Below, piece after piece: positions 37,492-63,448 of a DNA stretch of 64,000 bases. The notes beneath the pieces were generated by a model. That model searched no databases. It was not told where the DNA came from and worked only from the letters and a program-made list of their open reading frames with translations. How positions within the stretch are numbered: position 1 is the stretch's first letter; every line of letters begins with the position of its first letter. Origin of the DNA: Candidatus Dasytiphilus stammeri (GTDB taxonomy: Bacteria > Pseudomonadota > Gammaproteobacteria > Enterobacterales > Enterobacteriaceae); NCBI GenBank assembly GCA_037083745.1, contig JBAPLR010000003.1, forward strand, positions 5,689 through 69,688, written 5' to 3'. Made by a program: the position numbers and the translations under genes.

Positions 37492-38322
37492 TTATTGAAG
37501 ATCAGAAATTATTCCATCATATACGTGTGTTGCAGGTCCTGTCATAAATAATGCCTCACCCGGTCCTAGCCAGCTAATCTGCAGACTACCAACAGGAAAA
37601 TATACTTGGACCTCTTTATTTAAAAAACCACTTTTTACTCCTACTGCCACGGCTGCACAAGCACCACTACCACAAGCAGGAGTTTCTCCTACCCCTCTCT
37701 CAAAAACACGTAGCCTAATATGTTGTCGATTGATAACTTCCATAAAACTAATATTTACAGACTCTGGAAATAGATAATTTTTTTGCAGTAAGCAACCTAC
37801 TTTTTCCACGGGAGCATTTTTAATATTATCTACTGGAATGACACAATGCGGATTTCCCATAGATACTACACTACACATAATAGTATCATCTCCTACTACT
37901 ATGGGATATTTATTATGAATAGTATCTGCTAAAAATGGAATTCTTGCTGGGGTAAAATTTGGTTCGTTCATTTTTACACATATTTGTTCATTATCTTTTA
38001 TTAACAAAAATAACTTTCCTTTTATAGTACTAACTATAAGATTTTTTTTGTTAGTTAAACCTTTTAAATTAACAAACTTAGCTAAACAGCGTGCTCCATT
38101 TCCACATTGTGTTACTTCGTTACCATCACAATTAAAAATACGATAGTGGAAATCAGTATGATTATTTGGGGGTGTTTCAACTAGTAAAAATTGATCAAAT
38201 CCTATTCCTTGTCTTCGATCAGACATCCTACGAATAAGTGAATGTGAAATGGTTATATTTTGTGTTATTGATTCCACAATCATAAAATCGTTACCCAAAC
38301 TATGCATTTTAGAAAATTTCAT
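37492..38322 (-). CDS. dapF: Diaminopimelate epimerase
   Basis: MKFSKMHSLGNDFMIV, NCDGNEVTQCGNGARC, SMGNPHCV and ERGVGETPACGSGACAA include both catalytic Cys motifs. Confidence 0.92.
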   Translation of the reverse strand: MKFSKMHSLGNDFMIVESITQNITISHSLIRRMSDRRQGIGFDQFLLVETPPNNHTDFHYRIFNCDGNEVTQCGNGARCLAKFVNLKGLTNKKNLIVSTIKGKLFLLIKDNEQICVKMNEPNFTPARIPFLADTIHNKYPIVVGDDTIMCSVVSMGNPHCVIPVDNIKNAPVEKVGCLLQKNYLFPESVNISFMEVINRQHIRLRVFERGVGETPACGSGACAAVAVGVKSGFLNKEVQVYFPVGSLQISWLGPGEALFMTGPATHVYDGIISDLQ

Positions 38323-38471: not shown

Positions 38472-39260
38472 TTATTTCGTACATTTACCATTATTATTAT
38501 TATGCTTTACTTCTATTTCTTGCTTTCGTAAGGTATCCCGGATCTTTTCTACTCGATCTTTACCTTCTTTTCGCACTATTACCTCTTCAACAACATTAGC
38601 TTTTTTATTTATAACTGGTTGTTCATGAGTCTCTGAGATTTCGACTACTGTCTCAGACCAATCAATATTATCATCTGATTGGCAGTTACCACTCTTAAGG
38701 GCACGTCTCAAAATAGAGGCATGTTCTTCATGAAGAGGAACTTCTACTTCTACATCTTTTTGGGTGACAAACCGCCGAACTCTTGTAGATCCTTCATAAA
38801 CAACTTTTTTACCAATTTCTAATTTTTCCTCTGCTAACTCTAAAACCTCTTCTTCGGCATGTTTTGGGTCTGTAGAGAAATGACTATGTTTTTTTGCTGA
38901 GATAATATCCTCGTTATTACAGTTAGAAACTGTTGCGTCCGACATTTCTACTAGAGGATGAGTATTCAAAATACTGATAGCTCTAGGAGTATCTTCTTCT
39001 TTAGTACGTAAAGTTAAAACTACTCCACCAGTTTTTACTGCCTGTCCATATATTTTAGCTTCTTGGTCAGTTAAACTTTGACCTAATAAACGTCTCCAAA
39101 TATCATGTCTATGGACTAAAATATTAGCTCCTCCTTGAAGTTGATCATTATTAATAAAACTTATATCATGCTTTTTAAATCCTGCTTTTAAAAGATTTCT
39201 CTTAGCGTCTTGTGCATGTTGAAAGTTATCAAACAAAGTTACTATCTTTTCATAGCTCAT
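38472..39260 (-). CDS. YsnF/AvaK (DUF2382)-domain general-stress-type protein
   Basis: The C-terminal half carries the repeated pattern LELAEEKLEIGKKVVYEGSTRVRRFVTQKDVEVEVPLHEEHASI and VVEEVIVRKEGKDRVEKIRDTLRKQEIEV, typical of DUF2382. The N-terminus (IVTLFDNFQHAQDAKRNLLKAGF) resembles stress-protein YflT-like domains. Confidence 0.6.
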   Translation of the reverse strand: MSYEKIVTLFDNFQHAQDAKRNLLKAGFKKHDISFINNDQLQGGANILVHRHDIWRRLLGQSLTDQEAKIYGQAVKTGGVVLTLRTKEEDTPRAISILNTHPLVEMSDATVSNCNNEDIISAKKHSHFSTDPKHAEEEVLELAEEKLEIGKKVVYEGSTRVRRFVTQKDVEVEVPLHEEHASILRRALKSGNCQSDDNIDWSETVVEISETHEQPVINKKANVVEEVIVRKEGKDRVEKIRDTLRKQEIEVKHNNNNGKCTK

Positions 39261-39306
39261 TATTAAACCCTCTTAATCTAAGAGTTAGAATAGTATCTAA
39301 GCATTA

Positions 39307-39963
39307 TTACTTTTGTAGAACATTTATTGAAACTCCACGATTTTGGATTTTACCTGGAGTAGTTGTAGAAGCTATTATAGGATTTTTATCACCATAACCT
39401 TGCGCTAACACTCGTTCAGGTGCAATCTTTAAATCAATCAATTCCTTTCGAACACTTTCTGCTCTTGCTTGGGATGAAACTATATTTTTTTCAGTTCGTC
39501 CGATACTATCAGTATAGCCGCCAATTTTTATTTTTACATTTGGATACGCCTTTAATATAGCAGCAATATTTTGTAAATGTGTTTTAGCCTCTATTGTTGC
39601 GTCATCTTGAGTTCTATCAAAAACTAGATAATCCAAATTTAACCAAAGTTTATCGCTTATTTTTTGTGCGGGATCTTGAATAAATTTTAATAATTTTGCT
39701 TCTACACTATCATTTTGCATACTGATAGTAACACCATCCGGTAATGTAATATTATTAAGTACCTTTACGCTGGTTAATTTGTGTAAGGGAGTTTTAGAAA
39801 TTTGTTTTTCTTCCTTCTTATGTAGTGGTTGGAAATACCAATACAAAAAGAGTAACGATATAACTAATAGAGGTAGTAACCAAATTATTACATTCGAACG
39901 TTTTTTTATTACTTCTTGTGCGAGAATAGAATTCTCATTCTTTTTCTGTCTATTAGATAACAT
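39307..39963 (-). CDS. Membrane-anchored OmpA-like (peptidoglycan-binding) domain protein
   Basis: It has one N-terminal TM helix (VIIWLLPLLVISLLFLYWYF). The C-terminal OmpA_C domain reads LVFDRTQDDATIEAKTHLQNIAAILKAYPNVKIKIGGYTDSIGRTEKNIVSSQARAESVRKELI...NRGVSINVL. Confidence 0.7.
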   Translation of the reverse strand: MLSNRQKKNENSILAQEVIKKRSNVIIWLLPLLVISLLFLYWYFQPLHKKEEKQISKTPLHKLTSVKVLNNITLPDGVTISMQNDSVEAKLLKFIQDPAQKISDKLWLNLDYLVFDRTQDDATIEAKTHLQNIAAILKAYPNVKIKIGGYTDSIGRTEKNIVSSQARAESVRKELIDLKIAPERVLAQGYGDKNPIIASTTTPGKIQNRGVSINVLQK

Positions 39964-43201: not shown

Positions 43202-43339
43202 GATATGTAATCCTAATATTATTTTAGGCATATTTATGCCAATTATCGAAAATATCCGCTGCAGAGTATGAGATAAAATTGATTAAGTGTAACTTAAAAA
43301 TTTTTATCAAAAATACAAAATTTATTATTGGAGAAAATA

Positions 43340-44185
43340 GTGAATACCGAATTATTAAAAACTTTTTTAGAGGTAAGTAGAACTTTACATTTTGGTAAAG
43401 CTGCAGAACTGCTTTACCTAACTCAATCCGCGGTAAGTTTTCGTATTCGTCAGCTAGAAAACCAACTAGGAGTAATTCTTTTTACCCGAAACCGTAACAA
43501 GATTAGATTGACTGCAGCGGGTATACGATTAGTTCCTTATGCGAATAGCATGCTCAACTTCTGGTTATCCGCTAAAAAAAACGTTATATATGCTCAACAC
43601 TATTATCAATTATCAATTGGAACTAGTGCTTCAGTATGGGAAGCTTATTTAACTGCATGGTTAAAATCCATTTATGATTACAATCAAGAAAACTCGTTGT
43701 ATATCGATGTTCGAATGGCATCACGTAATTTACTCATCAAACAATTACATGACCACCAACTAGACATATTAATTACTACTGATGTTCCTAAAATGGTAGG
43801 AGTAGTTAGTACAAAAATAGGAACTATATCACTCCAATTGTTCCATACAATACGACTACTACCTAATAATCATTATAATTATATAAATCTAGAGTGGGGA
43901 GATGATGGTTCCAATCATGAGCTGACGAGTACTGAAATACAGTTATTACCTGTCTTAATGACATCTTCAGCACATTTAACACGGAAGTTATTAACTAGCA
44001 TAAATGCTTGTGCTTTTTTACCTAATTTTTGGAATAAAATTTATCCAGAATTGATAACTATATCGCATATCCCACTAATCACCCGGCCTTTATACGCCAT
44101 ATGGCTAAAAAATAGTACTCAACAGACCCAAATACAAAAATTACTTAAATGGTCTCTTAATAATTTTAAGTTTAAATTTTTATGA
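43340..44185 (+). CDS. hdfR: LysR-family regulator HdfR
   Basis: NTELLKTFLEVSRTLHFGKAAELLYLTQSAVSFRIRQLENQLGVILFTRNRNKIRLTAAG is almost residue-for-residue E. coli HdfR. ...RPLYAIWLKNS also matches. GTG start at 43340 after GGAG; the ORF-track TTG lies 4 codons upstream. Confidence 0.88.
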   Translation: MNTELLKTFLEVSRTLHFGKAAELLYLTQSAVSFRIRQLENQLGVILFTRNRNKIRLTAAGIRLVPYANSMLNFWLSAKKNVIYAQHYYQLSIGTSASVWEAYLTAWLKSIYDYNQENSLYIDVRMASRNLLIKQLHDHQLDILITTDVPKMVGVVSTKIGTISLQLFHTIRLLPNNHYNYINLEWGDDGSNHELTSTEIQLLPVLMTSSAHLTRKLLTSINACAFLPNFWNKIYPELITISHIPLITRPLYAIWLKNSTQQTQIQKLLKWSLNNFKFKFL

Positions 44186-47846: not shown

Positions 47847-50507
47847 CTATCTCACCAAATAAAATTTTCGTCCGTGACATTTTTTATATTTTTTCTGTGA
47901 GCCACAAGGACAGAGTTGATTAGGTCCTATTTTTTTGATTGGAGCAATATTCTCACTTTGTTCTGATGAAGTAGACGAGAGTAGTGATAAGGATATTGTT
48001 TCAGAAAAAGGTTCTAAGTGATTAAAGTTCATTTTATAAAGTCTACTGACTACCTCATATTTCATGGTTTCTAGTAAAGTAGCAAACATAGCAAATGATT
48101 CCCGTTTATATTCTTGCATCGGATCTTTTTGCGCATAACCACGTAAATGAATGCCTTGACGTAGATAATCCATAGCAGCTAAATGTTCTTTCCACAGAGT
48201 ATCTAATGTTTGTAACATTATATTTTTTTCTAAATTACACATTTTTTCTGGGCTAACTATTAATTTTTTATTGTCATATATTTTCTGCGCATGAAAAATA
48301 ATTTTTTCACTTATTTCGGTTACGATAATTTTATCATCCTTTTTGATCCATTCAGTGATAGGAAAATCAAGATTAAAATCTCTCTTAAGTAGATCTTCTA
48401 ATCCAGTAATATTACAGAATTCTTTTAAACAGTTCGCAGGAATATGTCGATTAATAATCGATCTGAACACATCTTCAAATATCCGGTCTATTGTAATACT
48501 TATTGCCGGGTTGGCCAGTAACTCATTCCGCTGCGCATAAATCACTTGTCTTTGATCGTTATCCACATTATCGTATTCTAATACCTGTTTACGCAAATCA
48601 AAATTTCGACCTTCCACTTTACATTGAGCATGAGCAATAGCTTTAGTTACCCAAGGATGTTCTATAGCCTCTCCCGCTTTAATTCCTAATTTCCGCATTA
48701 TTCCTACTAGACGATCGGAAGCAAAAATTCGCATCAAGCTATCTTCCAGCGAGAGGTAAAATCTGGAAGATCCAGGATCTCCCTGTCTGCCTGCACGACC
48801 TCTGAGCTGATTATCAATTCTCCGAGACTCATGACGTTCAGTCCCTATAATATGTAGTCCTCCTGCTTCTACAACTGCATTATGGCGTTCTTGCCAAGCT
48901 TGCTTAATAATATTAATTTTAGCTGGATTATTAATAATTTTAGATTGTAAACTACCTCCTAGAACAATATCTGTGCCCCGACCCGCCATATTAGTAGCTA
49001 TAGTTACTGAAGACGGTTGTCCCGCTTGTGCAATTATCTCAGCTTCATGAGCATGAAATTTAGCGTTTAATACCTTATGTTTTATGCCGGCTCTACTAAG
49101 AGCTCGAGAGATAGTCTCTGATTTTTCAATAGAAATAGTTCCTACCAACACCGGTTGACCTTGAGTAATTCTAAATTTTAAATCCTGAATTATTGCTTCA
49201 ATCTTTTCTTTTTCACTTAGATATACCAGATCAGGTAAATCTTTACGTATCATCTTCCTGTTAGGAGGAATAACAATAGTATCTAATTGATAAATAGAAC
49301 GAAATTCAAAGGCTTCTGTATCAGCAGTACCAGTCATGCCCGCTAATTTAGTATATAATCGAAAGTAATTCTGAAAAGTAATAGATGCCATAGTTTGATT
49401 TTCATTTTTAATTTTTACTTCTTCTTTAGCTTCTATTGCTTGGTGTAAACCTTCGGACCAACGACGCCCGGTCATAGTACGTCCCGTATGTTCATCTACA
49501 ATGACTACCTCTTCATCTTTCACAAGATAATCTCTATTACGAATAAATAATGTATGTGCACGCAGAGCCGACGTTACATGCTGCATTAAGATTATATTGG
49601 AGGGTGAATAAAGTGACTCTTCTATTTTCATTAGTCCTTCCCTCACTAAAAGTTCTTCTATTAAAATTAGTCCCCGTTCTGTTAAATATACCTGTCTAGT
49701 TTTTTCATCTACCGAAAAATGACCTTGTCCTTGGTAAGAATCAGAATCTTCTTTTTCTTGTTGGATTAAGTAGGGAATTAAATTATTAACTTGGACATAT
49801 AGATCTGAGCGATTATTTTCCATTGGACCAGAAATAATTAAAGGAGTGCGAGCTTCATCAATTAGGATGGAATCTACTTCATCTACTAAAGCATACGACA
49901 GTAGTCTCTGGACCTGATTTTGAGTACTAAATGACATATTATCCCGTAAGTAATCAAAACCATATTCATTATTCGTACCATAAGTAATATCCGCAGCGTA
50001 AGCGGACTTTTTTTCTGCTGTGTTCATTCCCGGTAAGTTAAGTCCTATAGTGATTCCTAGAAATTCAAATAGAGGACGATTAGTATCAGCATCTCTTTGT
50101 GCTAGATAATCATTCACTGTTACAATATGTACTCCTTTTCCAGGGAGAGCATTTAAATAAGCCGGAAGAGTTGCTGTAAATGTTTTTCCTTCACCAGTTC
50201 GCATTTCCGCAATACACCCATTATTTAAAACTATTCCACCAAGCAACTGAACATCAAAATGACGCATATTCAATACCCGTTTACTAGCTTCCCTTACAGT
50301 CGCAAAAGCTTCCGGTAAAATATTTTCTAGTTTTTCACCTTCCTCCAGGCGTTCTCTAAATAACTTAGTATTTTCTTTTAATGACTTATCAGAAAGCTTA
50401 GAGTATTTTTTTTCTAAGTTGTTAATGCAGGCGACTAATTTGGTCATGCGCAATATTATTCGATCATTTCTGCTGCCAAAAATTTTTTTTAATATCTGTA
50501 ATAACAT
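47847..50507 (-). CDS. secA: Preprotein translocase ATPase SecA
   Basis: [55 protein letters not shown] and [10 protein letters not shown] match SecA. The C-terminal zinc motif is [14 protein letters not shown]. Confidence 0.95.
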
Positions 50508-50728
50508 AGTGAATTAATTCTCTTTATTCTTACTTATGTTTTACTCATCTTTTTTCATCAATGTCATATAAATTTTATTATAATATTTCTGAAAAACGTT
50601 ATATACTGAGAAAATTTCCATTCTTAGGAAAGAAATTCATTCTTAATGAAGTTAAAAATTATTTTTTATTCTCTAATCAATATTAGATTGTAAAATTATC
50701 AACTCCGATTATTAATGGAATATATTTT

Positions 50729-51211
50729 ATGAGATATAGTGCTCCATGTACCCTAAAAAATATTTTTGATAATGCTTGCGATCATAGTATGCTCAAATTT
50801 TTACAGAAAAAATCTGCCCAATTAATTTATTTAGATCAGGTAGTAAAATCCGCCCTTCCATTACATTTACATTCTTGGTGTCGCGTGATAAACTTCCATC
50901 AAGGAAGATTATCTCTAGCATTTGCTAATGCTCCCGCAATGAACAGATTACGTTATGAACAACGAATTTTAGTTTCCCTTTTACAATCCCTAATTCCATC
51001 ATTAATAGGAATTGATCTCAGTATTAATCCTTCATTGCCGATTACCAATAATTATCTGTGCTCCACATATTCATCATCATTCAACAAAAATATAATATTA
51101 TCGCGAACCATAAGTCATCAAAGTGCGGCAATATTGCGTAAAGTAGCTATCAAATGTCCGGAAAAAATAAAATCTGCATTAGAAAGATTAGCATCCTTGG
51201 CAACAGACTAA
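50729..51211 (+). CDS. DUF721/DciA-like protein (putative ancestral replicative-helicase operator)
   Basis: The core LPLHLHSWCRVINFHQGRLSLAFANAPAMNRLRYEQRILVSLLQ fits my recollection of the gammaproteobacterial DUF721 pattern (..HC.V.....G.L.L......WATRLRY....L...L). The location next to secA, on the opposite strand, is where non-enteric gammaproteobacteria carry this gene. No search was run. Confidence 0.5.
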   Translation: MRYSAPCTLKNIFDNACDHSMLKFLQKKSAQLIYLDQVVKSALPLHLHSWCRVINFHQGRLSLAFANAPAMNRLRYEQRILVSLLQSLIPSLIGIDLSINPSLPITNNYLCSTYSSSFNKNIILSRTISHQSAAILRKVAIKCPEKIKSALERLASLATD

Positions 51212-51223
51212 CTAGGTGATTAA

Positions 51224-52198
51224 TTATCTATCTCTCCTTATTGAGATATTACGCATATCCTCAGATATCGGGTTCTTAAGATCAGCTAAATTAAGAATTT
51301 CTACTAATAATTGAGAAAAATTACAACCTATCTGTTTTGCGGCCATAGGTACTAAACTCTGACTAGTCATACCGGGAGATGTATTTACTTCGAGTAAATA
51401 AAATTTACCATCATTTTGCATGATATCAATCCTACCGCATCCACTACAACCTAAAATTTTCCATGCTTTCATTACCAGCTGATTAAAATAACATTGTTGT
51501 TCACTGGATAAACCACTAGGACAAAAATATTGAGTGTTAGATGAGCAATATTTAGCTCTGTAGTCATAAACTAGACCGGCGTACTTAATACGAATCTCGG
51601 GTAAAATTCGATCTCCTAAAATAACAGCCGTGTATTCAGGACCACTAAGCCATTTTTCTACTAATACCGTATTATCATAATAAAATGCTTGTTTTAAGGC
51701 TAATGAAAGTTCCTTAATATGATTAACTTTTGTAATTCCTAAACTTGATCCTTCATGAATAGGTTTTACTATCACGGGCATAGATAAATTTAATATCTCA
51801 TCTTTTATATTACGATTTAAATAACCTTTGATAAATGCAGATTTATTAATCGTTATCCAAGGAGCTACTGGTAATCCAATTCTTTCCCATACTAACTTAG
51901 TATGTAACTTATTTAGACTAATAGCAGAAGCTTTAATACCACTTCCAGTATAAGGAATTCTTAAGTATTCTAGCATACTTTGCAAAACTCCATCTTCTCC
52001 TCCACGTCCATGAAGAGCAATAAATACTTTCTGGAATCCATCATTTTTAAGATTAATTAGGGGATAAGATTTAATATCTATTGCAGAGGCACTAATACCA
52101 GCATCTTTAAGACCGCTGATTATTGCTTGGCCCGATAGCAAAGATACTTCTCTCTCGGCGGAGTTTCCGCCTAATAATACTGCAATTTTATCACCCAT
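51224..52198 (-). CDS. ddlB: D-alanine--D-alanine ligase
   Basis: [41 protein letters not shown] and [20 protein letters not shown] match DdlB. It has a short C-terminal extension relative to E. coli. Confidence 0.92.
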
Positions 52199-52233
52199 CC
52201 AATTAATTCCTGTTGTTATAAAAATATAGAAAA

Positions 52234-53694
52234 TTATTTAGTTCTGTTTAATAAGTTAGTAATAAGAAGATCAGCTATTTCTCTTATATTTCCCGCACCC
52301 TGAATTAAAACTAGATCATTATTCTTCAATAATGAAGATAGCAAATTTATCAGAGTAGAATGTGTGGATACAAAAATGGCTTTTATTTGCTTATTCAGAC
52401 TATTAATAGAATGACAGAGGGCATTACTATTAGCTCCGTTAATGGGAGTTTCACCCGCAGAATAAACTTCTAATAAGAAGAGAATATCTAATTGGGAGAG
52501 TACCGAAACAAAGTCATTATAGAGATTACGCGTTCTCGTGTAACGATGGGGTTGAAATATCATTACTAGTCTTTTTTGAGGCCAGCTTATACGAACCGTT
52601 TGAATAGTGGCCGCTAATTCCGTAGGATGATGTCCATAATCATCTACTATTAACACACTCCCTGCTTTACCATTAAACTGGTGAAGAAAAAATTCACCAA
52701 TAAAATCAAATCTGCGCAGTGTACCCGGATAATAGGAGAGGGATTGTAAAATAACCGAATCAGCTATTCCTTCTTCGGTAGCTACAGCAACAGCAGCCGC
52801 TGCATTAAGTGCATTGTGACGTCCTGGCGTATTTAAACATATGGAAAAATTCGTTTTATTTTTACGTAATAAAAGAAAATAACTTTTAAGAATTTTTTGT
52901 TGATAATGAGTAATCCTAATGTCAGCATCTTCACTGAATCCATACGTTGTAATTTTGATGGTACGCTTAATCTCTGGCCAAATATGTCTAATCAAGATAT
53001 TATCGACGCATATAATTATATGCCCAGAATCCGGTAAATTATTCAAAAACTTTATAAAAGTTACTTTAAGATTGGATAATTCTCCTTTATAAGTATCCAT
53101 ATGTTCAGTATCAATGTTAGTAATGACTGCTACCATGGGTCGTAAATATAAAAAAGAAGCATCACTTTCATCAGCTTCCAATATTAGATATTTACTAGCT
53201 CCTAAATGAGCGGATGTTCCTGTCGCCTTCAATATTCCCCCATTAATAAATGTGGGATCTAATCCTGCTTGGGTGTATATAGTAGCTAATAGAGCAGTAG
53301 TAGTAGTTTTACCATGGGATCCAGCAACCGCAATACTATATCGATTACGCATTAACTCGGAGAGCATTTGTGCTCGTCTTATTACAGGGATATGTGCTTC
53401 ATAAGCAGCCCTTATCTCTGGATTATTATGATCAATAGCTGTGGAAATAACCACTATACATGCTTGTTGTACATGGGAGAAATCATGACTAAAATAAATA
53501 GTGACTCCTAGTGATATTAGGTGTTCTGTCATGGCATTGTGTTCCAGATCTGAGCCACTGATTAGATATCCTTCCCGTACTAGTATTTCCGCTAGAGATC
53601 CCATGCCCGAACCTCCGATACCTATAAAGTGGATAGATTTTTGTGATGATCTTAATAAAGTCCAATTTAAACGTAGATTTTGAAATTTAGACAA
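52234..53694 (-). CDS. murC: UDP-N-acetylmuramate--L-alanine ligase
   Basis: [44 protein letters not shown] and DDYGHHPTE match MurC. Confidence 0.92.
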
Positions 53695-53761
53695 TGATTT
53701 TTGTAATTATTCCGTATTTGTTAATGACTGTTATTTCTAAGAAAAAAATAGTTATCTTTAC

Positions 53762-54835
53762 TTATGAGTAAGTAGCAGCTCTTTGGATTATATCAGCTAT
53801 TTTTTCGGTAGCATTCATAATTCCTATTGATCTTGCTAATAAAGCCATTCGTAAGAGTTGTCTTCGATCAAAAGATTCTAACATAGCAGCTACTCTCGAA
53901 GCTGTAAAATATGATTGCTTTATAATCTTAGCTGCACCAATATCTTCTAGCAATACTGCATTCCAGTATTGATGTTGATCTTTATGTGGAAAAGGTACAA
54001 AAATAGCCGCTAAACCTACCGCAGATATTTCACTTACAGTTAATGCCCCCGATCTACAAATAACTATATCAGCCCAACTATAAGCTTCTGCTATATCAGA
54101 AATAAATTCAGTAATTCTATATGAAGTTTTATATGTTTCTTGATACAATTTTATTGTTTGGGTTAAAAATAAGGATCCCACCTGATGCCATAAAGTAATT
54201 TTGGATCCCAAAATCATTGCAACTTGTGGAATAATATTATTTATTATTTTTGATCCTTGGCTCCCTCCCATTACTAATACTCTTAACGGACTATTTTCGC
54301 GACCTAAAAATCTGACTTCAGGTGAAGGAATAGTTCTAATTTCATTTCGAAGAGGATTACCTACTACCAGAGCATTATTTAAATCTCCTGGAAAACCCTG
54401 TAATACATATCGAGATATTTTGGCTAACCATCGGTTTGTTAATCCTGCAATACGATTTTGTTCATGTATAACTATGGGAATATCATATAACCAAGCTGCT
54501 AAAATTCCTGCAGCGGAAATATAACCTCCCATCCCTAATACTACATCCGGTTTCCAATTTTTAATTATATTAAAAGATTTAATTAGGGTACCTCCTAATT
54601 GGAGAAAACCAGGTAAGTAATACTTAAATTCTTTTTTTCTGATTAAATTCATATTAAGAATTTTAATATCAATATTATGTTGGGGCACTATCCTGGCTTC
54701 CATACGATCAGCTGACCCTATCCAGAGAATTTTCCATTGCTGCTTCATAAGATAGTGAGCTATTGCTATTCCCGGAAATATATGTCCGCCTGTTCCACCA
54801 CCTATTATTAATAATCGATAAGTCAATTCATTCAT
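53762..54835 (-). CDS. murG: Lipid II-forming N-acetylglucosaminyl transferase MurG
   Basis: IIGGGTGGHIFPGIAIAHYL, GMGGYIS, VMGGSQGS, RSGALTVSEI and HQYWNA match MurG. Confidence 0.92.
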   Translation of the reverse strand: MNELTYRLLIIGGGTGGHIFPGIAIAHYLMKQQWKILWIGSADRMEARIVPQHNIDIKILNMNLIRKKEFKYYLPGFLQLGGTLIKSFNIIKNWKPDVVLGMGGYISAAGILAAWLYDIPIVIHEQNRIAGLTNRWLAKISRYVLQGFPGDLNNALVVGNPLRNEIRTIPSPEVRFLGRENSPLRVLVMGGSQGSKIINNIIPQVAMILGSKITLWHQVGSLFLTQTIKLYQETYKTSYRITEFISDIAEAYSWADIVICRSGALTVSEISAVGLAAIFVPFPHKDQHQYWNAVLLEDIGAAKIIKQSYFTASRVAAMLESFDRRQLLRMALLARSIGIMNATEKIADIIQRAATYS

Positions 54836-54968
54836 AGATTTTTATCTATCTAATTTTCTTAGATATGTTGATGATTTTAATTATAGGATATAAATAGGAT
54901 CCTAGCCGCACTTAAAGGAAATAAAATATTATGTTGGAGAAAAAATTACTTAAATATGGCTCCTGTAA

Positions 54969-56284
54969 TTATCCTAACTCTTTAGCTAAAAAAGTAAATA
55001 TATTACCACGTTGACGAAAATTAGAATATTGATCTTGACTAGAGCAGGCAGGAGATAAAAGAACCGTATCCCCCGGCTTTAATTTCTTAGCAAGTAAGTA
55101 CATAGCTTCGATCATAGTATTTGTTTGTATTGTTATCTCGGGATATAATGTTGATAATAGATCTTTATCTCTGCCAAAGCAGTATACTTGTATTCGATCT
55201 TGTAAATACTCTTTAAGAGGACTAAAATCGGAAGATTTTCCATCTCCTCCCAAGAGTAAATAAATTATTCCGCTTCTTATTTTTCTAGTTAACTTCAGTG
55301 CAGCTATTGTACTCCCTACATTAGTAGCCTTAGAATCATTTATCCATTGAATCCTATTATTTTCCCAAATTAACTGATATCGATGCGGCAACCCAGTAAA
55401 ATTAGAAATAGTTTTTAAACTCACAGCCCGGGATACTCCTAACATGTCTGCTACTGCTAGGGCGGCTAAAACATTCATGTAATTATGCTCACCTAGTAAC
55501 CTGATATTCTTTGTATTTAACAATTTGTTACCATCTACATATAGACAAACACTACCCGACGAAGATTTATCTAGATAATAGTTACCTTTAGTACTGCCAA
55601 AACTTACATATTCTTGGAAAGAACTTCGTTTAGGGTGTGTGTTCTTATCTTCTGCATTATAAATACAAACGTCAGATTGTTCATAAATGCGTAATTTTGT
55701 ATCACGGTAATGATTAAATCCAAGAGGGTAACGATCTAGATGATCTTCACTAATATTTAAAATAGTTGCGGCTACAGTCTGCATACTCTGTATCGTTTCT
55801 AGTTGAAAACTAGAGATTTCTAATACATAAAGTTCATAGGGTTTGAGTAAAAGTTTAAGAGCTGGTAACCCAATATTACCCCCTAGCCCAGTATAATATC
55901 CATAAGAGCTAGCTATATCTGCAATTAAAGTGGACACAGTGGTTTTACCATTAGTACCAGTAATCGCCACAATAGGAAATCGAGCTTCTCGACAAAATAA
56001 TTCAATATCGCTGACTATTTCTATACCATTAGCTAATGCTTCTTGAAGAAATGGATGCATGATACTGATTCCCGGACTTAATACTATCATATCCGTGGAC
56101 TGTAACCATTTTCTGTTTAAAAAATCACAATATTCTACTTTTTTTGGTAACTTATTAACTTCGGGGAGATAAGATCTAGTATCTATCACGCGAGGTAATA
56201 GATCCCGCGATAAAAAAAAATCAATACATGAGAGTCCGGTTATCCCTATTCCAATTATGAGAATCTTTTTTTTTTATAATTCAT
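54969..56284 (-). CDS. murD: UDP-N-acetylmuramoylalanine--D-glutamate ligase MurD, out of register with its ATG because of an A10 tract
   Basis: The body (GTG 56189 downwards) has [11 protein letters not shown] and DSKATNVGS. The frame stays open upstream to 56273 and encodes KKKILIIGIGITGLSCIDFFLSRDLLPRV (E. coli [28 protein letters not shown]), but has no start codon. ATG 56284-56282 abuts the mraY stop and sits one frame away, across A10 (56266-56275). Confidence 0.85.
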
Positions 56285-57361
56285 TTAAGGTACCTTCACG
56301 AACGTTGATATTCCTATAAAAATCATTATTAAAGATAAAATCCAAAATCTTACGATAATCCGAGGTTCCGGACATCCTTTCAATTCATAATGATGATGTA
56401 GTGGAGCCATAAGAAAGAAGCGTGTTCCTCGTAATTTAAACCATCCGACTTGAATAATGACTGAAATAGTTTCTATAACAAATACTCCACCCATGATAAA
56501 TAACAATAATTTCTTTCGTAAGAGTACTGCAATTATTCCTAATAAACCTCCTAATGGCAGAGATCCAACATCTCCCATAAATATTTGAGCAGGATATGTA
56601 TTAAACCACAAAAAACCTAATCCTGCTCCCATAATGGCAGTACAAACTATTACTATTTCACTAGCATCCTGTAAGTAAGAAAGATGCAGATAACTTGCCA
56701 AAGTTACATTACCAGTCGCCCATGATATTAAAGCAAAACCGGAAGATACCAATACTAGGGGCATAATAGCTAATCCATCTAAGCCATCGGTGAGATTTAC
56801 CGCATTGCTCGTCCCAATAAGAACAAAATAAATCATTAAAAAATATATTATTTCCATGGAAGGAAAAAAATTACTTAAATCAGGATACATTATATTCTGT
56901 ATTGGAATTTTATTTTTATCAATCCACCATATCAATACAATTATTATACCTGTTATTATAGATTGCCAAAAATATTTCCATCGGGCACTTAACCCTTGGG
57001 TATTACGACGTGATAGTTTTCGGTAATCATCAATAAATCCTATAATTCCATAGCCTATTAATACAAATAATATACACCAAATATAAGAGTTAGATAACTG
57101 CGTCCAAAGTAATACGGTAAGGAGAATAGATATTAAAATTATCGTTCCTCCCATAGTAGGGGTACCGTACTTATTTAAATGAGTCTTAGGACCCTCCCTA
57201 CGGATAATTTGATTAAGATTTAATTTTTTTAATTTTTTTATAAATGCTGGCATCATAAAAATAGGAATAAAGAAGGCGGTCAGAAAACTAAAAATAGATC
57301 TAAAATTTAGAAAGGTGATATTTTCTCCATGTGTAATTTTGGTCAGTATCCAGAATAACAT
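56285..57361 (-). CDS. mraY: Phospho-N-acetylmuramoyl-pentapeptide transferase MraY
   Basis: It is a polytopic membrane protein with [32 protein letters not shown] and [11 protein letters not shown]. Confidence 0.93.
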
Positions 57362-57373
57362 AAATGTTACTTA

Positions 57374-58750
57374 TTATTTTAAGGTCTCGATAATATAATC
57401 CAGAACAGCATTCCGAGAACCTTTTATTAAGATCGTTATTTTATTATATGCTTGAAGCAACATTTTTAGTCGTTTACTTAATTTCACTGGATTATCAAAA
57501 TGTTCTCCACTCGAATGAAAACGACTAATATTTTTGCTCAATGTTCCGATGCTAATCACTTTATTAATTTCTGCTATATTATGTACTGTAGCTCCTACTC
57601 TCTGGTGATATTTAACACTATGCACCCCTAATTCAGCCATGTCTCCTACTACCATCACTAAATATCCAGGCATTTTAGCTAAAGTCAAAGCTGCAGCATT
57701 CATAGATGCAACATTAGCATTATAGCTGTCATCTAACAGTAACTTATTTTTATCTTTATCTAAAAACACTGGATACATTCGTCCCGGAAAGGCTTGGACC
57801 ATAGATAATCCCTGTCTAATTTTTGATAATGGTACTTGCACTGCCGTAGCTAAAGCTGTGGCTGCTATAGCATTCGCAATATTATGCATACCTAACAATG
57901 ACAGATGCACATCCACTACTCCTACCGGAGTATGGATGGTAAAGGAAGTACTAAAAGAATTTAAAATAATATTAGAAGAAAAAAAATTACTATTACTTTT
58001 TTTCTTCATAGAGAAACGCCATAATACCTTATTACGAAGACTTTTTTTCCAAATAGGAAAATAATCATTATTTTCATTATTAATAATAGCTATTCCATTA
58101 TTTTTTAATCCCGTAAATATTTCTCCTTTGGCTCGTGCTACCCCTCTCAAAGATCCAAAATACTCTAAATGTGATAACGATATATTGTTTACTAATACCA
58201 CTTCCGGTTTTGTTAACTTTACTGTATAAGAAATTTCATTTGGGTGATTAGCGCCTAATTCAATAACACCAAAAGCATATTTTTGATTCAATTTTAACAA
58301 TGTTAATGACACACCTATTTTATTATTCATATTGCTAAAAGTAGATAGTGTCGGTCCACATTGACTTAATATAACATGCAACATTTCTTTAACTGTAGTC
58401 TTGCCACAAGATCCAGTTAATGCTAATATTTTAGTGCTATTGAGCTGTTGTCGAATACCCGACGCTAGTTTGCCTAGAGCTACGCTAGTATCAGATACGA
58501 TAATTTGTGGTAAATTGATAGTTAAAATACGACTCACCACTACTGCCTTAACACCATTATTTTTAATACTTTCAGTAATAAAATTATGCGCATCAAAATT
58601 GTTTCCTTTTAATGCAATAAAAAGAGCAGATGTTGCAGATTGTCGTGTATCAGTTAATATTGTATATATATAGTAACTTTTACTAAGAGGACAACCCATA
58701 ATTTTTCCATCAATAATATTAGCTATTTGAAATAATGAAAGAGGTATCAT
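57374..58750 (-). CDS. murF: UDP-MurNAc-tripeptide--D-alanyl-D-alanine ligase MurF
   Basis: LTGSCGKTTVKEM, IELGANHPNEI, LLDDSYNAN and GDMAELG match MurF. Confidence 0.92.
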   Translation of the reverse strand: MIPLSLFQIANIIDGKIMGCPLSKSYYIYTILTDTRQSATSALFIALKGNNFDAHNFITESIKNNGVKAVVVSRILTINLPQIIVSDTSVALGKLASGIRQQLNSTKILALTGSCGKTTVKEMLHVILSQCGPTLSTFSNMNNKIGVSLTLLKLNQKYAFGVIELGANHPNEISYTVKLTKPEVVLVNNISLSHLEYFGSLRGVARAKGEIFTGLKNNGIAIINNENNDYFPIWKKSLRNKVLWRFSMKKKSNSNFFSSNIILNSFSTSFTIHTPVGVVDVHLSLLGMHNIANAIAATALATAVQVPLSKIRQGLSMVQAFPGRMYPVFLDKDKNKLLLDDSYNANVASMNAAALTLAKMPGYLVMVVGDMAELGVHSVKYHQRVGATVHNIAEINKVISIGTLSKNISRFHSSGEHFDNPVKLSKRLKMLLQAYNKITILIKGSRNAVLDYIIETLK

Positions 58751-58754
58751 TATT

Positions 58755-60248
58755 TTATTTTTTGTAAAGTCTTGTTACTAGCGCCAAATCAGAATAATTA
58801 ATCCGTTGATTTTTCACTAACTGATAATTTTCATGACCTTTGCCACTTATCAAGATAACATCATCTTCATCTGCTAATTGAAGTACTCTGTTTACGGCTA
58901 AGGCTCGATTAGGTATAATCTCAATCTTTGATGATAAATTCATTCCTCTTAAAATATCATTTATAATAACTCTCGGATCCTCATTACGAGGATTATCATT
59001 AGTTATGATGATTTTATCAGCTAAATTTTCAGCAATGCTTCCCATAAGAGGACGCTTTCCTTGATCACGTTCTCCTCCACAACCAAAAACACACCATAAG
59101 TACTTACATCTGATCTGCATTCGGGTAGATATAAGCGCATGTTTCAAAGCATCAGGGGTATGTGCATAATCTATAATTACTTTCGGTTTTCCCTTCACAT
59201 GAAACATATTCATTCGTCCCTTCACTGGTTTTAAAGAAGTACATGTCTCTATCAATTGATCTAGTGAGTAACCTAATGTTAATAGAGTAGTAAGTGCTAA
59301 TAATAAGTTGCTTACATTGAAATATCCAATTAAATGACTTTTGATGTGACCATTTCCCCAAAAAGATTGGAATCTAATTTGAGTTTCTTGATAATTAAAA
59401 AAATTAATTTGAGTTGCCTTAAGCCATCTCCTTCTTTTATAACTGTGTTGATTAATAGAAACTATTACCGCATCTGGTAATAGAGATAACCAAGATCGTC
59501 CAACTTCATCATCGCCATTAATGATAATATTTTTAGTCTCATGTTCGGAGAACAATAACCATTTTGCTTTTTTATAAGATTCCATAGTGCCATGATAATC
59601 GAGATGATCACGACTTAAGTTAGTGAATACTACAGCTGCAAAGGGAACTGATGTTACGCGATGTTGAGATAAACCATGCGAAGAAATTTCTAGAGCGGCA
59701 ACTTTGCTTCCTTGTTCAACTAACGAGTTTAATATTTTTTGAATTTCTACTGCTGACGAAGTAGTATTTTTCGTATTAAAAATATGTCCATATAAACCGT
59801 TACCTAATGTTCCCATAATGGCACTTTTTTTCCCAAGTAATTGTACCCATTGTGCCACTAAGTTTGTAATCGTGGTTTTACCATTAGTACCTGTAACGCC
59901 CACTATAGATAATTTTTTACCTGGATGACCATAGTAACGAGCTGCGATCTCCGAAAGATGATGAGATAAATTTTTTAAATATATGATGGGAATATTCTTA
60001 TTATGGACGGATAAAATTTCACTATTGTTAGTACGGTTCATCTCTGCTTCCGTAATAATCGCTTGTCCTCCTTGCGCGATAGCTTGGGAAATAAACTGAC
60101 GTCCATCTAGTAAATATCCAGGGAGAGCAACAAATAAATCGCCGGGTTTTACTAATCGGCTATCTAGTTGAATTTCCCGGATAAAAACATTTGGCACTGA
60201 ACTTATCCATGGTGCCAATAAGTAATCTAAAAAATGGTTATTTATCAC
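58755..60248 (-). CDS. murE: UDP-MurNAc-L-Ala-D-Glu--meso-diaminopimelate ligase MurE (the ORF stays open a further 55 codons upstream, to ATG 60413)
   Basis: (M)[13 protein letters not shown] aligns with E. coli [44 protein letters not shown] and DNPRNEDP also match. GTG 60248 gives a 497-aa product (E. coli 495 aa). The upstream extension is discussed in findings. Confidence 0.85.
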
Positions 60249-60499
60249 TAATATTTCATTAGGTAGGGTTATTGTTAATACTATTAAAGTAACTGTTACT
60301 GGATCCAGAGTAATTATTGTTAATAATAATTTATTATTTATAGATATCTTTTTGAGAATATTTTCTTGAAAAGAAACATTTTCTTTTTTTAAGTTTATTA
60401 CGACTTCTTTCATAAAAACTTATTAAGTTAATATAATAGCAGAATTCTGGGAGAAACATTTTTATTAATTTTTATCTCCTTTAACTGTTCTCTAATTAC

Positions 60500-61465
60500 T
60501 CACATTCTCAGTTTTTCTGCGCTGCGTAATATTGCACTCCGGGCTCTATGGTTCATAGCTATCTCCATTCTACTAGGCTTTATTTTACCAACTGCTTTCA
60601 ATAAATAACCATCTGAGCAAATCAATATTCCGGAATTACGATTTTCGTTAATTAAATATCCTGAAGAATTATTATCTGAAACTAAACAGCACGTACTATG
60701 GTTCCGAATAAAAAACTTTACCAAACGATCTTCTAAAGAATGAAAACTAATCACGCATAAACGTCCGCTAGAACGCAGACATTTTAAAGATCCTTCTAAG
60801 CCTTTTCGTAGTTCTGTAAGTTCGTTATTGATGAATATTCGAATGGCCTGAAAACTTCGTCGAGCGGGATGTTTTTTAATAAATTTTTTATGAGAAAGAG
60901 ATGTTATAACTTCTACTAATTCCTTTGTTCGTGTAATAGGAGAATTATTACGTCTTTTTATGATCGCACGAGCAATGCGTCGGGCAAATCGTTCTTCTCC
61001 GTAATTTTTCAAAACTACAGTAATATCATGTTCAGTAGCATTAAATAACCAGGCAGCAGCTGATAAGCTTTGCGTAGGATCCATTCTCATATCAAGGGGT
61101 CCATCGTTCCAAAAAGAAAATCCCCGCTCTACATTATTTATTTGTTCTGAAGACAGACCTAAATCTAAGAGTATTCCATCAATGCGTCCTATTAATTGTC
61201 TTTTCTCCATATATGATGATATACGTGAAAAACAACCGTGGATGATAGTTAAACGTTGATCATTCATACCTTTCGAAGCTTCTATGGCTTGAGGATCTCG
61301 ATCTATAGCATATAATTTTCCTGCAGAAGATAAACGATTTAATATCATTCTAGCATGTCCCCCACTGCCAAAAGTACAATCTATGTAGATCCCATTATCT
61401 TTTATATTAAGAGCATTCACGGCTTCATTGAGAAGCACCGGATTATGTTTGATCCAATTGGGCAT
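60500..61465 (-). CDS. rsmH: 16S rRNA m4C1402 methyltransferase RsmH (MraW)
   Basis: HNPVLLNEAVNALNIKDNGIYIDCTFGSGGHARMIL, LLDLGLSS and SFHSLEDR match RsmH. It is the first gene of the dcw cluster. Confidence 0.92.
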   Translation of the reverse strand: MPNWIKHNPVLLNEAVNALNIKDNGIYIDCTFGSGGHARMILNRLSSAGKLYAIDRDPQAIEASKGMNDQRLTIIHGCFSRISSYMEKRQLIGRIDGILLDLGLSSEQINNVERGFSFWNDGPLDMRMDPTQSLSAAAWLFNATEHDITVVLKNYGEERFARRIARAIIKRRNNSPITRTKELVEVITSLSHKKFIKKHPARRSFQAIRIFINNELTELRKGLEGSLKCLRSSGRLCVISFHSLEDRLVKFFIRNHSTCCLVSDNNSSGYLINENRNSGILICSDGYLLKAVGKIKPSRMEIAMNHRARSAILRSAEKLRM

Positions 61466-61753
61466 AGATTTTTATCTCTCTTTTCGACGGGGTTTTTGAA
61501 AAATAGAAGAAAATACTTATTCATTAATTGTTCCCGACCTATTTTATTCTGATAAAATTGCATTATACATCTTGATCCTCTGCTCGAGAATACGATCTTA
61601 ATGGAATATTATATAATGAATGTAATAAGAACAATTTCTTTTCCATATCATAGCTATCGGATAAAAGATACCATAATTTCGTGTAATTATAGAAGATAAT
61701 AATCTTCCAATTATTTTTTTTAAGATATTAACTCTTAGCCTAAAATTTAGCTC

Positions 61754-62272
61754 ATGAATATAATAATCAAAAAAAGTATTATTTTGTTTTTACTGGTAGT
61801 AGGATTGACATCTTCTTCTCTAAATATAGAAGTAGGATTTTCGCCGGATATTTCCGCATCAAAACTTATTTTACAGTCCATCTCTCAAGCTCATCATAAA
61901 ATTGATATAGCGGCTTATTCTTTTACTAGTAAACCTATAAGTTTAGCGTTACTTGCAGTTCAGAAACGGGGGGTAATAATTAGAATTATTGCAGATCACA
62001 AAGCTAACAATAGATATACTGCTCTTACTTTTTTAGCAAACCATGGAATATCAATAAGATTAAATAATAATTATGCTATTATGCATAATAAATTTATGAT
62101 TATAGATAATCAAATAGTCCAAACGGGCTCCTATAATTATACAAGAGCCGCGGCTAAACAAAATGCGGAAAATGTTATTATCTTATATAATGCACCTTAT
62201 ATTGCTTTACAATATGAAAAAGAATTTAAACAACTCTGGGAGGAATCATCAGTTTTACAAACACAACATTAA
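61754..62272 (+). CDS. Secreted phospholipase-D-superfamily endonuclease (Nuc-like, single HKD motif)
   Basis: It has a signal peptide (MNIIIKKSIILFLLVVGLTSSS). VGFSPD...IDIAAYSFTSKPI..AL..A.KRGV.IRII.D follows, with the HKD motif MHNKFMIIDNQIVQTGSYNYTRAAAKQNAEN. Size (172 aa) and order match my recollection of plasmid pKM101 Nuc. Confidence 0.7.
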   Translation: MNIIIKKSIILFLLVVGLTSSSLNIEVGFSPDISASKLILQSISQAHHKIDIAAYSFTSKPISLALLAVQKRGVIIRIIADHKANNRYTALTFLANHGISIRLNNNYAIMHNKFMIIDNQIVQTGSYNYTRAAAKQNAENVIILYNAPYIALQYEKEFKQLWEESSVLQTQH

Positions 62273-62482: not shown

Positions 62483-63448
62483 ATGAATATTATCAAAATA
62501 CTTATCTTCATCCTCACTTTTTTGTGCCATCAGAAAATTTCTGCACGTCCAATATTAATTGATAGAATTTCAGTAATTGTAAATAATCAAGTAATATTGC
62601 AAAGTGATATTGACTATATAATTCATTTTTTAAAACCGTGGTCTAACATAGATTCACAGCGAATAGTGAAAGAACTTATCCTTAATACAGTATTATTGCC
62701 GGTAATCCAAACAGATAATACTAAAGTCAGTGATGAAGATATTCATACCACTGTTATGACTAATATCAATCAATATGCTGTAGACTTCCATCTGTCATCA
62801 AATAATTTATTATATGTCTTTTTATTTGCTAACAAAAAAATAGACTATCAGTCATTTCATAATGAAATTAGTTACGAAGTAAGATTTAATCATATAATGA
62901 ATTCTGTTCTAAACGAGAGAATATTAGTTACGCCATCACAAGTTAATGCCTTCTTAAAAAAACATTTTAATATTCTTCATCCTTTTCTATTGACCGAATA
63001 TCAACCAAAAAATAAAAATGAAAACTTATTTTTAACTGAAATGTATGTCCGCCACATTCTGATCAATTCTCCTCTCATTACTAATAAAAAATCTTCCGAA
63101 ATCTTGAGAATAATTGTTGAAAATCTAAAAATAGGAAACATGAATTTATCTCGGAATAATAAAAAATCAGATGAACAGTTAGAGTGGATATTACCTCAGA
63201 GATATCATTCTTCTTTAAGAAGTGCTCTGTTAAAATTATCACTTAATGAAATTAGTCCACCCATCTTTAATGAAGATGGATGGCACTTACTTCAGTTACT
63301 TGAAACTCGAAAAATTCTACATCATAAAGATAGTATCTTTCAAGAAGAATCTTGGCAAATATTAGAGAATTTAAAAATAGCTGAAGAAACCTCCTCTTGG
63401 ATCCAACACCAACGTAATCATGCTTATATAAAAATAATATCTACTTAA
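62483..63448 (+). CDS. surA: Periplasmic chaperone SurA, shortened (single parvulin domain)
   Basis: It has a signal peptide. IDRISVIVNNQVILQSDID matches E. coli VDKVAAVVNNGVVLESDVD. One parvulin block runs YVRHILI...DGWHLLQLLETRK (E. coli P2: ARHILL...FGWHLIELLDTRN). The C-terminal tail SSWIQHQRNHAYIKI matches ASWMQEQRASAYVKI. It is 321 aa versus 428 aa. Confidence 0.75.
   Translation: MNIIKILIFILTFLCHQKISARPILIDRISVIVNNQVILQSDIDYIIHFLKPWSNIDSQRIVKELILNTVLLPVIQTDNTKVSDEDIHTTVMTNINQYAVDFHLSSNNLLYVFLFANKKIDYQSFHNEISYEVRFNHIMNSVLNERILVTPSQVNAFLKKHFNILHPFLLTEYQPKNKNENLFLTEMYVRHILINSPLITNKKSSEILRIIVENLKIGNMNLSRNNKKSDEQLEWILPQRYHSSLRSALLKLSLNEISPPIFNEDGWHLLQLLETRKILHHKDSIFQEESWQILENLKIAEETSSWIQHQRNHAYIKIIST

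Follow-up and report, generated by a model that had tools for sequence, protein, structure and literature searches.

Pairs of a SEDS protein (the name stands for shape, elongation, division and sporulation) with a penicillin-binding protein (PBP) of class B are almost universally retained among bacteria, the class A PBPs (aPBPs) being the dispensable partner (Atwal et al. 2021, PMC8406291), and bacteria that have peptidoglycan without FtsZ use MreB instead (Otten et al. 2018, PMC5814848). The peptidoglycan-intermediate bacteria, represented by Wolbachia, Orientia, Anaplasma marginale and the Chlamydiae, encode at least one SEDS protein and at least one class B PBP, and no class A PBP (PMC5814848; PMC8406291). 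In the Chlamydiae, MreB, SEDS proteins and PBPs of class B are kept and those of class A are missing (PMC5814848); division uses MreB/RodZ, FtsK and FtsQLB-like proteins (PMC5814848, PMC8406291). Loss of FtsZ is also known in tiny-genome endosymbionts, where it has been linked to wall loss (PMC4164004). Here we describe the division and cell wall (dcw) gene cluster of Candidatus Dasytiphilus stammeri, an obligate bacteriome endosymbiont of soft-winged flower beetles (Listrus; the Listrus clade of the symbiont) with a genome of ~0.5 Mb. The cluster lies in a 64-kb stretch of contig JBAPLR010000003.1, called the window below, and combines two features: the division genes and lpxC are absent, and the genes for wall precursors are kept.

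Gene families were assigned by scanning the open reading frames (ORFs) of the window with NCBIfam profiles at their curated cut-offs and with Pfam profiles. The full dcw protein set of the free-living relative Gilliamella (L012), 16 genes from mraZ through lpxC (mraZ, rsmH, ftsL, ftsI, murE, murF, mraY, murD, ftsW, murG, murC, ddlB, ftsQ, ftsA, ftsZ and lpxC), served as tblastn queries; the mraZ query was partial. The minus strand carries rsmH-murE-murF-mraY-murD-murG-murC-ddl, followed by dciA on the plus strand and secA on the minus strand. According to the ORF listing and family scans, the first eight genes are consecutive and fill 51224-61465. All eight are matched in the window by the Gilliamella queries, at 46-58% identity, and form a collinear backbone on one strand with the order and orientation seen in Gilliamella L012. 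MurC, MurD, MurE, MurF, Ddl, MraY and MurG are all present and full length, with the exception that murD needs a frameshift correction in the Listrus clade, and each of these proteins exceeds the curated cut-off of the NCBIfam model that matches it best. The features of the cluster are as follows.

61466-61753, minus strand: spacer of 288 bp upstream of rsmH, the mraZ site; no tblastn match to Gilliamella MraZ; neighbouring ORF PLD/NucT-like, plus strand, at 61754
60500-61465, minus strand: rsmH, 16S rRNA m4C1402 methyltransferase, the first retained gene; TIGR00006, 347 bits (cut-off 154); syntenic in 10/10 Dasytiphilus genomes
60249-60499, minus strand: non-coding spacer at the ftsL-ftsI deletion site, including a strain-specific 55-codon ORF extension; no FtsL/FtsI similarity
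58755-60248 (ORF to 60413), minus strand: murE, meso-diaminopimelate (meso-DAP)-adding ligase; NF001123, 706 bits (cut-off 586), matched from residue 62 of the long ORF
57374-58750, minus strand: murF; NF008041, 580 bits (cut-off 551); dN/dS 0.19-0.33
56285-57361, minus strand: mraY; TIGR00445, 431 bits (cut-off 192); dN/dS 0.18-0.47
54969-56284 (long ORF 54969-56189; true ATG 56284-56282), minus strand: murD, frameshifted in a poly(A) tract; TIGR01087, 354 bits (cut-off 212), profile match only from position 57, the N-terminus lying outside the long ORF
54836-54968, minus strand: murD-murG spacer of 133 bp, the ftsW deletion site; no FtsW similarity
53762-54835, minus strand: murG; TIGR01133, 330 bits (cut-off 250)
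52234-53694, minus strand: murC; TIGR01082, 527 bits (cut-off 335)
51224-52198, minus strand: ddl, D-Ala-D-Ala ligase; NF002378, 380 bits (cut-off 243), residues 3-306 of 324 matched
51212-51223, no strand: ddl/dciA junction of 12 bp between convergent 3' ends, the ftsQ-ftsA-ftsZ-lpxC deletion site
50729-51211, plus strand: dciA (DUF721, helicase-loader family), the ancestral right-hand border of the cluster; Pfam PF05258, E = 2.2e-9
47847-50507, minus strand: secA, housekeeping comparator; NF009538, 1222 bits; dN/dS 0.15-0.24

An initial annotation of the window, made from its letters and ORF translations, had described much of this layout, and its account is borne out: the gap sizes (86 bp plus a 55-codon extension, 133, 12 and 288 bp) were all reproduced from the ORF listing and the sequence, 86 bp separating the rsmH stop codon and the first ATG in the murE ORF. 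The DUF721 ORF that it placed on the opposite strand ahead of secA is identified by Pfam as dciA, and family scores and ORF lengths agree that all seven Mur/Ddl/MraY genes are full length apart from the murD tract. A promoter and terminator scan of 50400-61900 was uninformative in this AT-rich DNA (61 promoter sites, 61.3 expected; five terminators, 4.7 expected); a -10-like box, TCTATACT / CCTATAAT, recurs in the murD-murG spacer.

None of mraZ, ftsL, ftsI, ftsW, ftsQ, ftsA, ftsZ and lpxC has a tblastn match in the window at E <= 1e-3. Permissive searches (word size 2, with E up to 50 in the gaps and up to 10 in the 64 kb) returned only noise, all whole-window matches for the missing genes lying at E > 0.4, so that no pseudogene remnant is detectable either in the four gaps or in the rest of the window. 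As a positive control, the same queries recover every missing gene in Gilliamella L009 and, except for the partial mraZ query, in the Arsenophonus aphid symbiont (L010). The strict and permissive searches uphold the earlier statement that mraZ, ftsI, ftsW, ftsQ, ftsA, ftsZ and lpxC are gone from the locus, and no remnant shows in the gaps, which the initial annotation had called too small to hold one. For the interleaved ftsL, ftsI, ftsW, ftsQ, ftsA and ftsZ, and for mraZ, there is likewise no tblastn match in the loci of nine other Dasytiphilus genomes, all of which contain all of the deletion junctions. The stretch from mraY to ddl, including the murD-murG junction that lacks ftsW, is identical in two independent Logan assemblies of this symbiont (L081 and L082, from runs SRR27829356 and SRR27829357), in which the exact MurG protein is also found; an assembly artefact as the cause of the absences is rejected on the agreement of these two assemblies and the nine other genomes.

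On the right-hand side, relatives are arranged as ddl-ftsQ-ftsA-ftsZ-lpxC-(dciA)-secA: 31 free-living gammaproteobacterial loci show ftsZ-lpxC-(~1 kb)-secA, and Arsenophonus shows ftsZ-lpxC-dciA-secA. Because the relatives hold ftsQ-ftsA-ftsZ-lpxC at this point, the loss here is explained by one deletion of ~4.3 kb between ddl and dciA. The initial annotation had also counted secM among the losses; this does not hold, since dciA occupies that position in relatives and secM need never have existed there. dciA is found in the same place in eight of the nine other Dasytiphilus genomes as well as in Arsenophonus L010. In the ninth, the symbiont of Dasytastes bicolor (L006), no tblastn match to DciA is found between ddl and secA (~13500-14200). 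The Ddl of the window carries 18 C-terminal residues beyond the profile, and Ddl is 319-324 aa long in the Listrus clade compared with 305-306 aa elsewhere, with a C-terminal tail of 14-19 residues (51224-51277) that may represent read-through into the former ddl-ftsQ junction. At the other end of the cluster, the mraZ site is bordered by a small gene for a nuclease of the phospholipase D (PLD) family, NucT-like (61754-62272, plus strand), which tblastn finds in Listrus-clade genomes only.

The comparison set comprises nine other Dasytiphilus genomes (L001-L008 and L066; ten including the window) from three host clades, among them three sister genomes of the Listrus clade (L001-L003) and the symbionts of D. 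niger (L007) and D. alpigradus (L008). The MurG of the window is 89-92% identical to that of Dasytiphilus Lsp04, Lsp06 and Lsp02 from Listrus beetles, and ~60% identical to that of six further Dasytiphilus genomes of 477-601 kb; an origin from Vesicomyosocius, a clam symbiont known to lack ftsZ, is rejected on this match. Among the strains of the published orthologue table, the gene numbering of the Listrus sp. 09 strain agrees best with the order of genes in the window, which probably belongs to that strain. All nine other loci have the order rsmH-murE-murF-mraY-murD-murG-murC-ddl-(dciA)-secA with the same absences, while the outgroups Gilliamella (L009, L012) and Arsenophonus (L010) retain the full cluster. 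Synonymous divergence (dS) is 0.14-0.22 within the Listrus clade and exceeds 1 between clades; the same pruned cluster in nine genomes and three clades at this divergence therefore indicates that the deletions are ancestral and precede the symbiont radiation, which has been described as a single acquisition followed by co-diversification (PMC11191362). On these comparative grounds, the pruning of the dcw cluster can be placed in the common ancestor of all sequenced Dasytiphilus, at four places: mraZ, ftsL-ftsI, ftsW and ftsQ-ftsA-ftsZ-lpxC. The murD-murG spacer left by the third of these measures 100-139 bp in all ten genomes and is conserved only within the Listrus clade.

The retained genes bear the marks of selection. 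Ratios of dN/dS were calculated after Nei-Gojobori for six within-clade pairs and one between-clade pair, and pairs with L001 or L066 were left out for murE as artefacts, their alignment beginning in the spacer. The values are ~0.19-0.47 for murE, murF, mraY, murD, murG, murC and ddl, compared with 0.15-0.24 for secA and 0.16-0.36 for rsmH, and in 10/10 genomes every mur, ddl and mraY ORF has its full length. MurE retains in all ten the motifs DNPR, which marks meso-DAP-adding enzymes, and GTNGKT, the ATP P-loop. The initial annotation had proposed that the lipid II genes are under selection, and their integrity in ten genomes at ratios in the range of secA and rsmH agrees with this. rsmH, the mur genes, mraY and ddl remain in the original order and orientation, and the ratios show that purifying selection has maintained them since; such constraint on mur, ddl and mraY is not the signature of decaying relics. 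It could be argued that the Mur genes are nonetheless functionless, that they have simply not yet decayed, and that the pathway is in transit to loss. We consider this improbable, as seven genes covering ~9 kb have stayed full length across genomes separated by dS > 1, with ratios like those of secA and rsmH and with the MurE catalytic motifs in place. Such a course would match the fate of the pathway in the symbionts of D. aeratus, D. plumbeus, D. virens and P. viridicoerulea, where it is already lost, and the only aPBP-only Buchnera strain, which has been judged to be in pathway degradation (Atwal et al., PMC8406291).

Two details of the retained genes needed closer inspection. The first concerns the start of murE. 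The 55-codon extension of its ORF is open only in this strain, as stops and indels close the frame in L001-L003, and the rsmH-murE spacer of ~250 bp, at 86% identity across the Listrus clade with indels of 1, 4 and 5 nt, evolves like neutral DNA that does not code. The likely true start is a conserved GTG at 60248, from which MurE has a normal N-terminus. The initial annotation had taken the extension for what is left of ftsL, and a hydrophobic stretch in it is suggestive of this; permissive tblastn of the spacer showed no similarity to FtsL, however, and a relic is rejected given the strain-specific, broken frame and the neutral-like evolution.

The second concerns murD, in which a tract of ten A residues (56266-56275, minus strand) occupies codons 4-7, directly after ATG-AAT-TAT, and places the conserved MurD N-terminus KILIIGIGITGLS in the -1 frame relative to the ATG. 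The gene can be read only if the mRNA gains one base or the ribosome slips by -1 at the tract, which is also a candidate A-AAA-AAG slip site. Its length is A10 in the window, the two Logan assemblies, L002 and L003, and A12 in L001 (~8560-8575); the four Listrus-clade genomes and both assemblies share the same offset of the murD frame, and murD is intact in the other Dasytiphilus clades. An assembly error is rejected, since the same state recurs in the two Logan assemblies and three other genomes. Between the A tract and an internal GTG lie 26 codons that differ between the window and L001 by seven synonymous and two non-synonymous changes in the murD frame, as opposed to one synonymous and seven non-synonymous changes in the other frames. 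The locus thus presents what characterizes conserved homopolymer frameshifts, namely a long A tract, a shared defect and a constrained remainder. Because the frame defect is shared, the downstream ORF intact and the change upstream of coding type, murD is most likely expressed, as predicted from these patterns, by slippage during transcription or by a -1 slip of the ribosome at the A run. Ancient poly(A) frameshifts in Buchnera and Blochmannia are reportedly rescued by polymerase slippage. The murD tract resembles them in that four diverged genomes share the frame defect and the remainder of the gene is intact and constrained, and differs in that slippage is here predicted from sequence and that a ribosomal slip is an alternative on the same tract. 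A frameshifted murD could count in favour of the decay considered above, but a frameshift conserved together with an intact downstream ORF and a still coding-like upstream segment speaks against this.

For genome-wide content, we searched the text of the published orthogroup table with KEGG names for 20 Dasytiphilus genomes (Wierz et al. 2024, ISME J, Supplementary file 2, PMC11191362). This search returned zero entries for ftsZ, ftsA, ftsW, ftsI, ftsK, mreB, rodA, mrd, minD, zipA and tolB, and equally for amidase, endopeptidase, carboxypeptidase, "septum" and "rod shape"; six "fts" strings are all explained by FtsH (the hflK, hflC and ftsH rows), ftsY and ftsJ. No lpx gene is listed for the 20 genomes, the string being found solely as part of clpX. 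"Penicillin" has a single entry, mrcB (PBP1B, K05365), the sole listed PBP, and the sole lytic enzyme is MltG, listed only in the Dasytastes clade. murA, murB, murJ and uppS are listed for the Listrus strains, with the exception of murA in Lsp07. The MurA-G set and mrcB are kept in 16/20 genomes: mrcB is listed in all strains with mur genes and is absent from exactly the four strains without them (the D. aeratus, D. plumbeus, D. virens and P. viridicoerulea symbionts). Such shared loss supports the idea that they are functionally linked, and the joint retention and loss of mrcB and mur is hard to reconcile with Mur genes that have ceased to function. The core of the initial annotation, lipid II genes under selection with the septal synthase pair, the FtsZ ring and lpxC gone, is supported by the dN/dS values and by this table.

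Relocation of intact fts genes and lpxC had been named at the outset as the finding that would reduce the case to a rearrangement. The absence of any fts divisome, mre, mrd or lpx entry from an all-gene table of 20 genomes contradicts it, and it is very improbable, in our view, that these genes act from elsewhere in the symbiont chromosome or as imported products of the host nucleus. In favour of such an explanation, the direct search covered only the 64 kb of this genome and 15-21 kb from each of the others, and in mealybugs, aphids and Angomonas the host is known to encode factors for peptidoglycan or division. We know of no insect that encodes an imported FtsZ.

Taking the locus and the table together, we judge it probable that Dasytiphilus runs a minimal, cytoskeleton-free peptidoglycan pathway with PBP1B as its only synthase, and that division is FtsZ-independent and possibly host-assisted; wall material is probably made without the known bacterial division machinery. 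Lipid II would be made in the cytoplasm by the mur, ddl and mraY products, with murA, murB and uppS encoded elsewhere in the genome, then flipped by MurJ and polymerized and cross-linked by PBP1B alone. Neither a SEDS/class B PBP pair nor a scaffold of FtsZ or MreB would be involved, nor, going by the table, any symbiont amidase or endopeptidase, and lipopolysaccharide would not be made. UDP-N-acetylglucosamine, D-Ala, D-Glu and, in some strains, meso-DAP would come from the host or from moonlighting enzymes, and reading the murD of the Listrus clade would take slippage at its poly(A) tract, either in transcription or by -1 on the ribosome. Class A PBPs can act independently of the cytoskeleton, and for this reason wall synthesis is predicted to be dispersed rather than septal, which fits coccoid to short-rod cells. 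Division would then most likely depend on host factors, such as peptidoglycan hydrolases and membrane constriction, or on passive, envelope-driven fission. A more specific version, in which PBP1B by itself builds a real peptidoglycan layer and host enzymes or constriction by host membranes bring about growth of the sacculus and fission, can be put forward only tentatively; it would be a case in nature of a wall built by aPBPs only and without a cytoskeleton, and of a host that controls symbiont division by cutting the wall.

A real polymer fits with two further genes that the window encodes:

37492-38322, minus strand: dapF, diaminopimelate epimerase, for the supply of meso-DAP to MurE; Pfam PF01678, E = 4e-57
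39307-39963, minus strand: YiaD-like lipoprotein of the OmpA family with a peptidoglycan-binding OmpA_C domain; Pfam PF00691, E = 7.5e-17; NF053611, 90 bits, below the cut-off of 175

According to the published table, dapF is kept in most Listrus-clade genomes, and the OmpA-type orthogroup is kept even in strains without the peptidoglycan pathway. A YsnF/DUF2382-domain protein and the YiaD-like lipoprotein adjoin dapF (38472-39963, minus strand). The Listrus symbionts lack lysA, and their "lysine" genes may serve wall synthesis instead; the DAP genes of these symbionts are thereby recast as possible cell-wall precursor genes. The symbionts of Danacea, D. niger, D. alpigradus, Listrus sp. 01 and Listrus sp. 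06 have no DAP genes in the table yet keep a MurE of the DNPR type (DNPR was seen in ten genomes).

Whether the product is a wall at all can be questioned. Lipid II or muropeptides could serve mainly as a host signal or metabolite, for example as ligands of bacteriome-regulating peptidoglycan-recognition proteins, with no load-bearing sacculus. This would be in line with the viability of strains without the pathway, with reviews that propose a reduced intracellular peptidoglycan tuned to host sensing (PMC8406291, PMC7154730), and with the difficulty of explaining how a closed sacculus grows when no scaffold is listed and MltG of the Dasytastes clade is the only lytic enzyme. The co-retention of the bifunctional polymerase mrcB with the pathway and of a peptidoglycan-binding OmpA-family lipoprotein suggest a polymer, however, and we hold this explanation to be unlikely.

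Several points weigh against the PBP1B-only pathway as proposed here. The genome-wide absence of divisome and elongasome comes from a text search of a published table, which would miss pseudogenes and very divergent proteins without a KO number, and PBP1B is known here from its listing in that table. alr, glmU and uppP have no entry in the 20 genomes, murI has one in the Dasytastes clade only, and six strains that keep mur genes lack a listed DAP pathway; for this reason the pathway is not self-sufficient and could be stalled, and the same gaps would be expected of a pathway on its way out. The claim of the initial annotation that every lipid II precursor gene is kept accordingly stands for the dcw cluster and fails for the genome as a whole. 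Furthermore, murD is frameshifted in the Listrus clade, and four lineages do without the whole pathway, which makes it dispensable in some hosts. Coccoid cells 2-4 um across have been described in D. plumbeus and D. virens, whose strains lack the pathway.

The comparison with the Chlamydiae, which the initial annotation had drawn, holds in part. Like the Chlamydiae, Wolbachia, Orientia and Anaplasma marginale, Dasytiphilus is obligately intracellular and retains the lipid II pathway although a large share of the envelope genes is lost, and like the Chlamydiae it keeps lipid II genes without FtsZ (at the locus by tblastn, genome-wide by the table). The likeness is superficial in that the retained synthases are the reverse set: going by the table, Dasytiphilus has no SEDS protein, class B PBP, MreB or FtsK, and the class A PBP encoded by mrcB is its sole synthase. 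It therefore falls outside the Chlamydia type, as ftsW and ftsI are absent at the locus, rodA, mrd and mreB are absent from the table, and mrcB is listed. The suggested likeness to nested endosymbionts does not apply, Dasytiphilus being an ordinary bacteriome symbiont of beetles.

A closer match is found among the four "aPBP only" cases reported from 4,985 closed genomes (Atwal et al. 2021, PMC8406291). These are one Paenibacillus, one Streptococcus pyogenes, Buchnera aphidicola JF98, which was judged to be degrading, and Candidatus Purcelliella pentastirinorum (PMC8406291); we suspect the first two to be annotation gaps. Purcelliella is described in the papers searched only as having lost some peptidoglycan-synthesis genes. 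Like Buchnera JF98 and Purcelliella (B.GamE), Dasytiphilus is a gammaproteobacterial insect endosymbiont in which, going by the table, mrcB is the only polymerase gene left. Unlike in these two, MurA-G and mrcB are kept under purifying selection in most genomes of an old clade. The table search agrees with the aPBP-only category, the locus lacks ftsW and ftsI, and mrcB is taken from its listing; Dasytiphilus would fit this category as a stable, clade-wide and selected state.

Partial counterparts exist in other reduced symbionts. Candidatus Westeberhardia cardiocondylae, an ant bacteriome symbiont with a genome of 533 kb, has independently lost ftsL, ftsI, ftsW, ftsQ and lpxC from its dcw cluster, and like Dasytiphilus it keeps rsmH, murE, murF, mraY, murD, murG and murC; it differs in that ftsA and ftsZ are kept, ddlB is lost and the gaps measure ~0.5-0.7 kb (L011, 2500-15700, tblastn). 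Baumannia cicadellinicola of the glassy-winged sharpshooter has lost FtsA and the late divisome proteins FtsQBLWIN, and outside mediation of division has been proposed for it (Bennett et al. 2014, PMC4196230); in contrast to Dasytiphilus, it has kept FtsZ and MinCDE and lost mrcB (PMC4196230). Kinetoplastibacterium in Angomonas deanei has lost most of the core divisome and kept precursor synthesis, and its division needs a dynamin-like protein of the host (Sci Adv 2025, PMC13109935). It differs from Dasytiphilus in retaining FtsZ, the Min system and amidases and in having a protist host, and its host control is shown experimentally, with nothing comparable known for beetles.

The genome paper reports which strains keep or have lost the peptidoglycan pathway, and its main text makes no mention of cell division or ftsZ (PMC11191362); a selected lipid II/PBP1B pathway in a genome that wholly lacks the genes of divisome and elongasome seems to have escaped discussion so far. 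If the pathway proposed here is correct, the Dasytiphilus clade would be a natural counter-example to the rules of SEDS/class B retention and of MreB substitution, and to the link between the loss of FtsZ and that of the wall in endosymbionts. It would also be a tractable system for what a class A PBP builds alone, and for how a walled bacterium divides without the known division machinery, possibly via its host.

Outside the cluster, stretches without an ORF of at least 90 aa at ~3800-5390, 31600-32400 and 33330-34290 may hold pseudogenes. A SurA homologue (62483-63448, plus strand) is shortened to 321 aa, reaches 126 bits against a cut-off of 394 and evolves fast (dN/dS 0.25-0.52); in most strains of the published table it is not recognized by KEGG. 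DNA polymerase I is divided over two minus-strand ORFs, 375-2165 and 2282-3166, which lie 116 bp apart and encode the polymerase/3'-5' exonuclease (596 aa) and the 5'-3' exonuclease (294 aa); this may be either a split by frameshift or nonsense mutation or a genuine two-gene arrangement. Two LysR-family regulators (32418-33323 and 43328-44185, plus strand) are retained in this genome of ~0.5 Mb.

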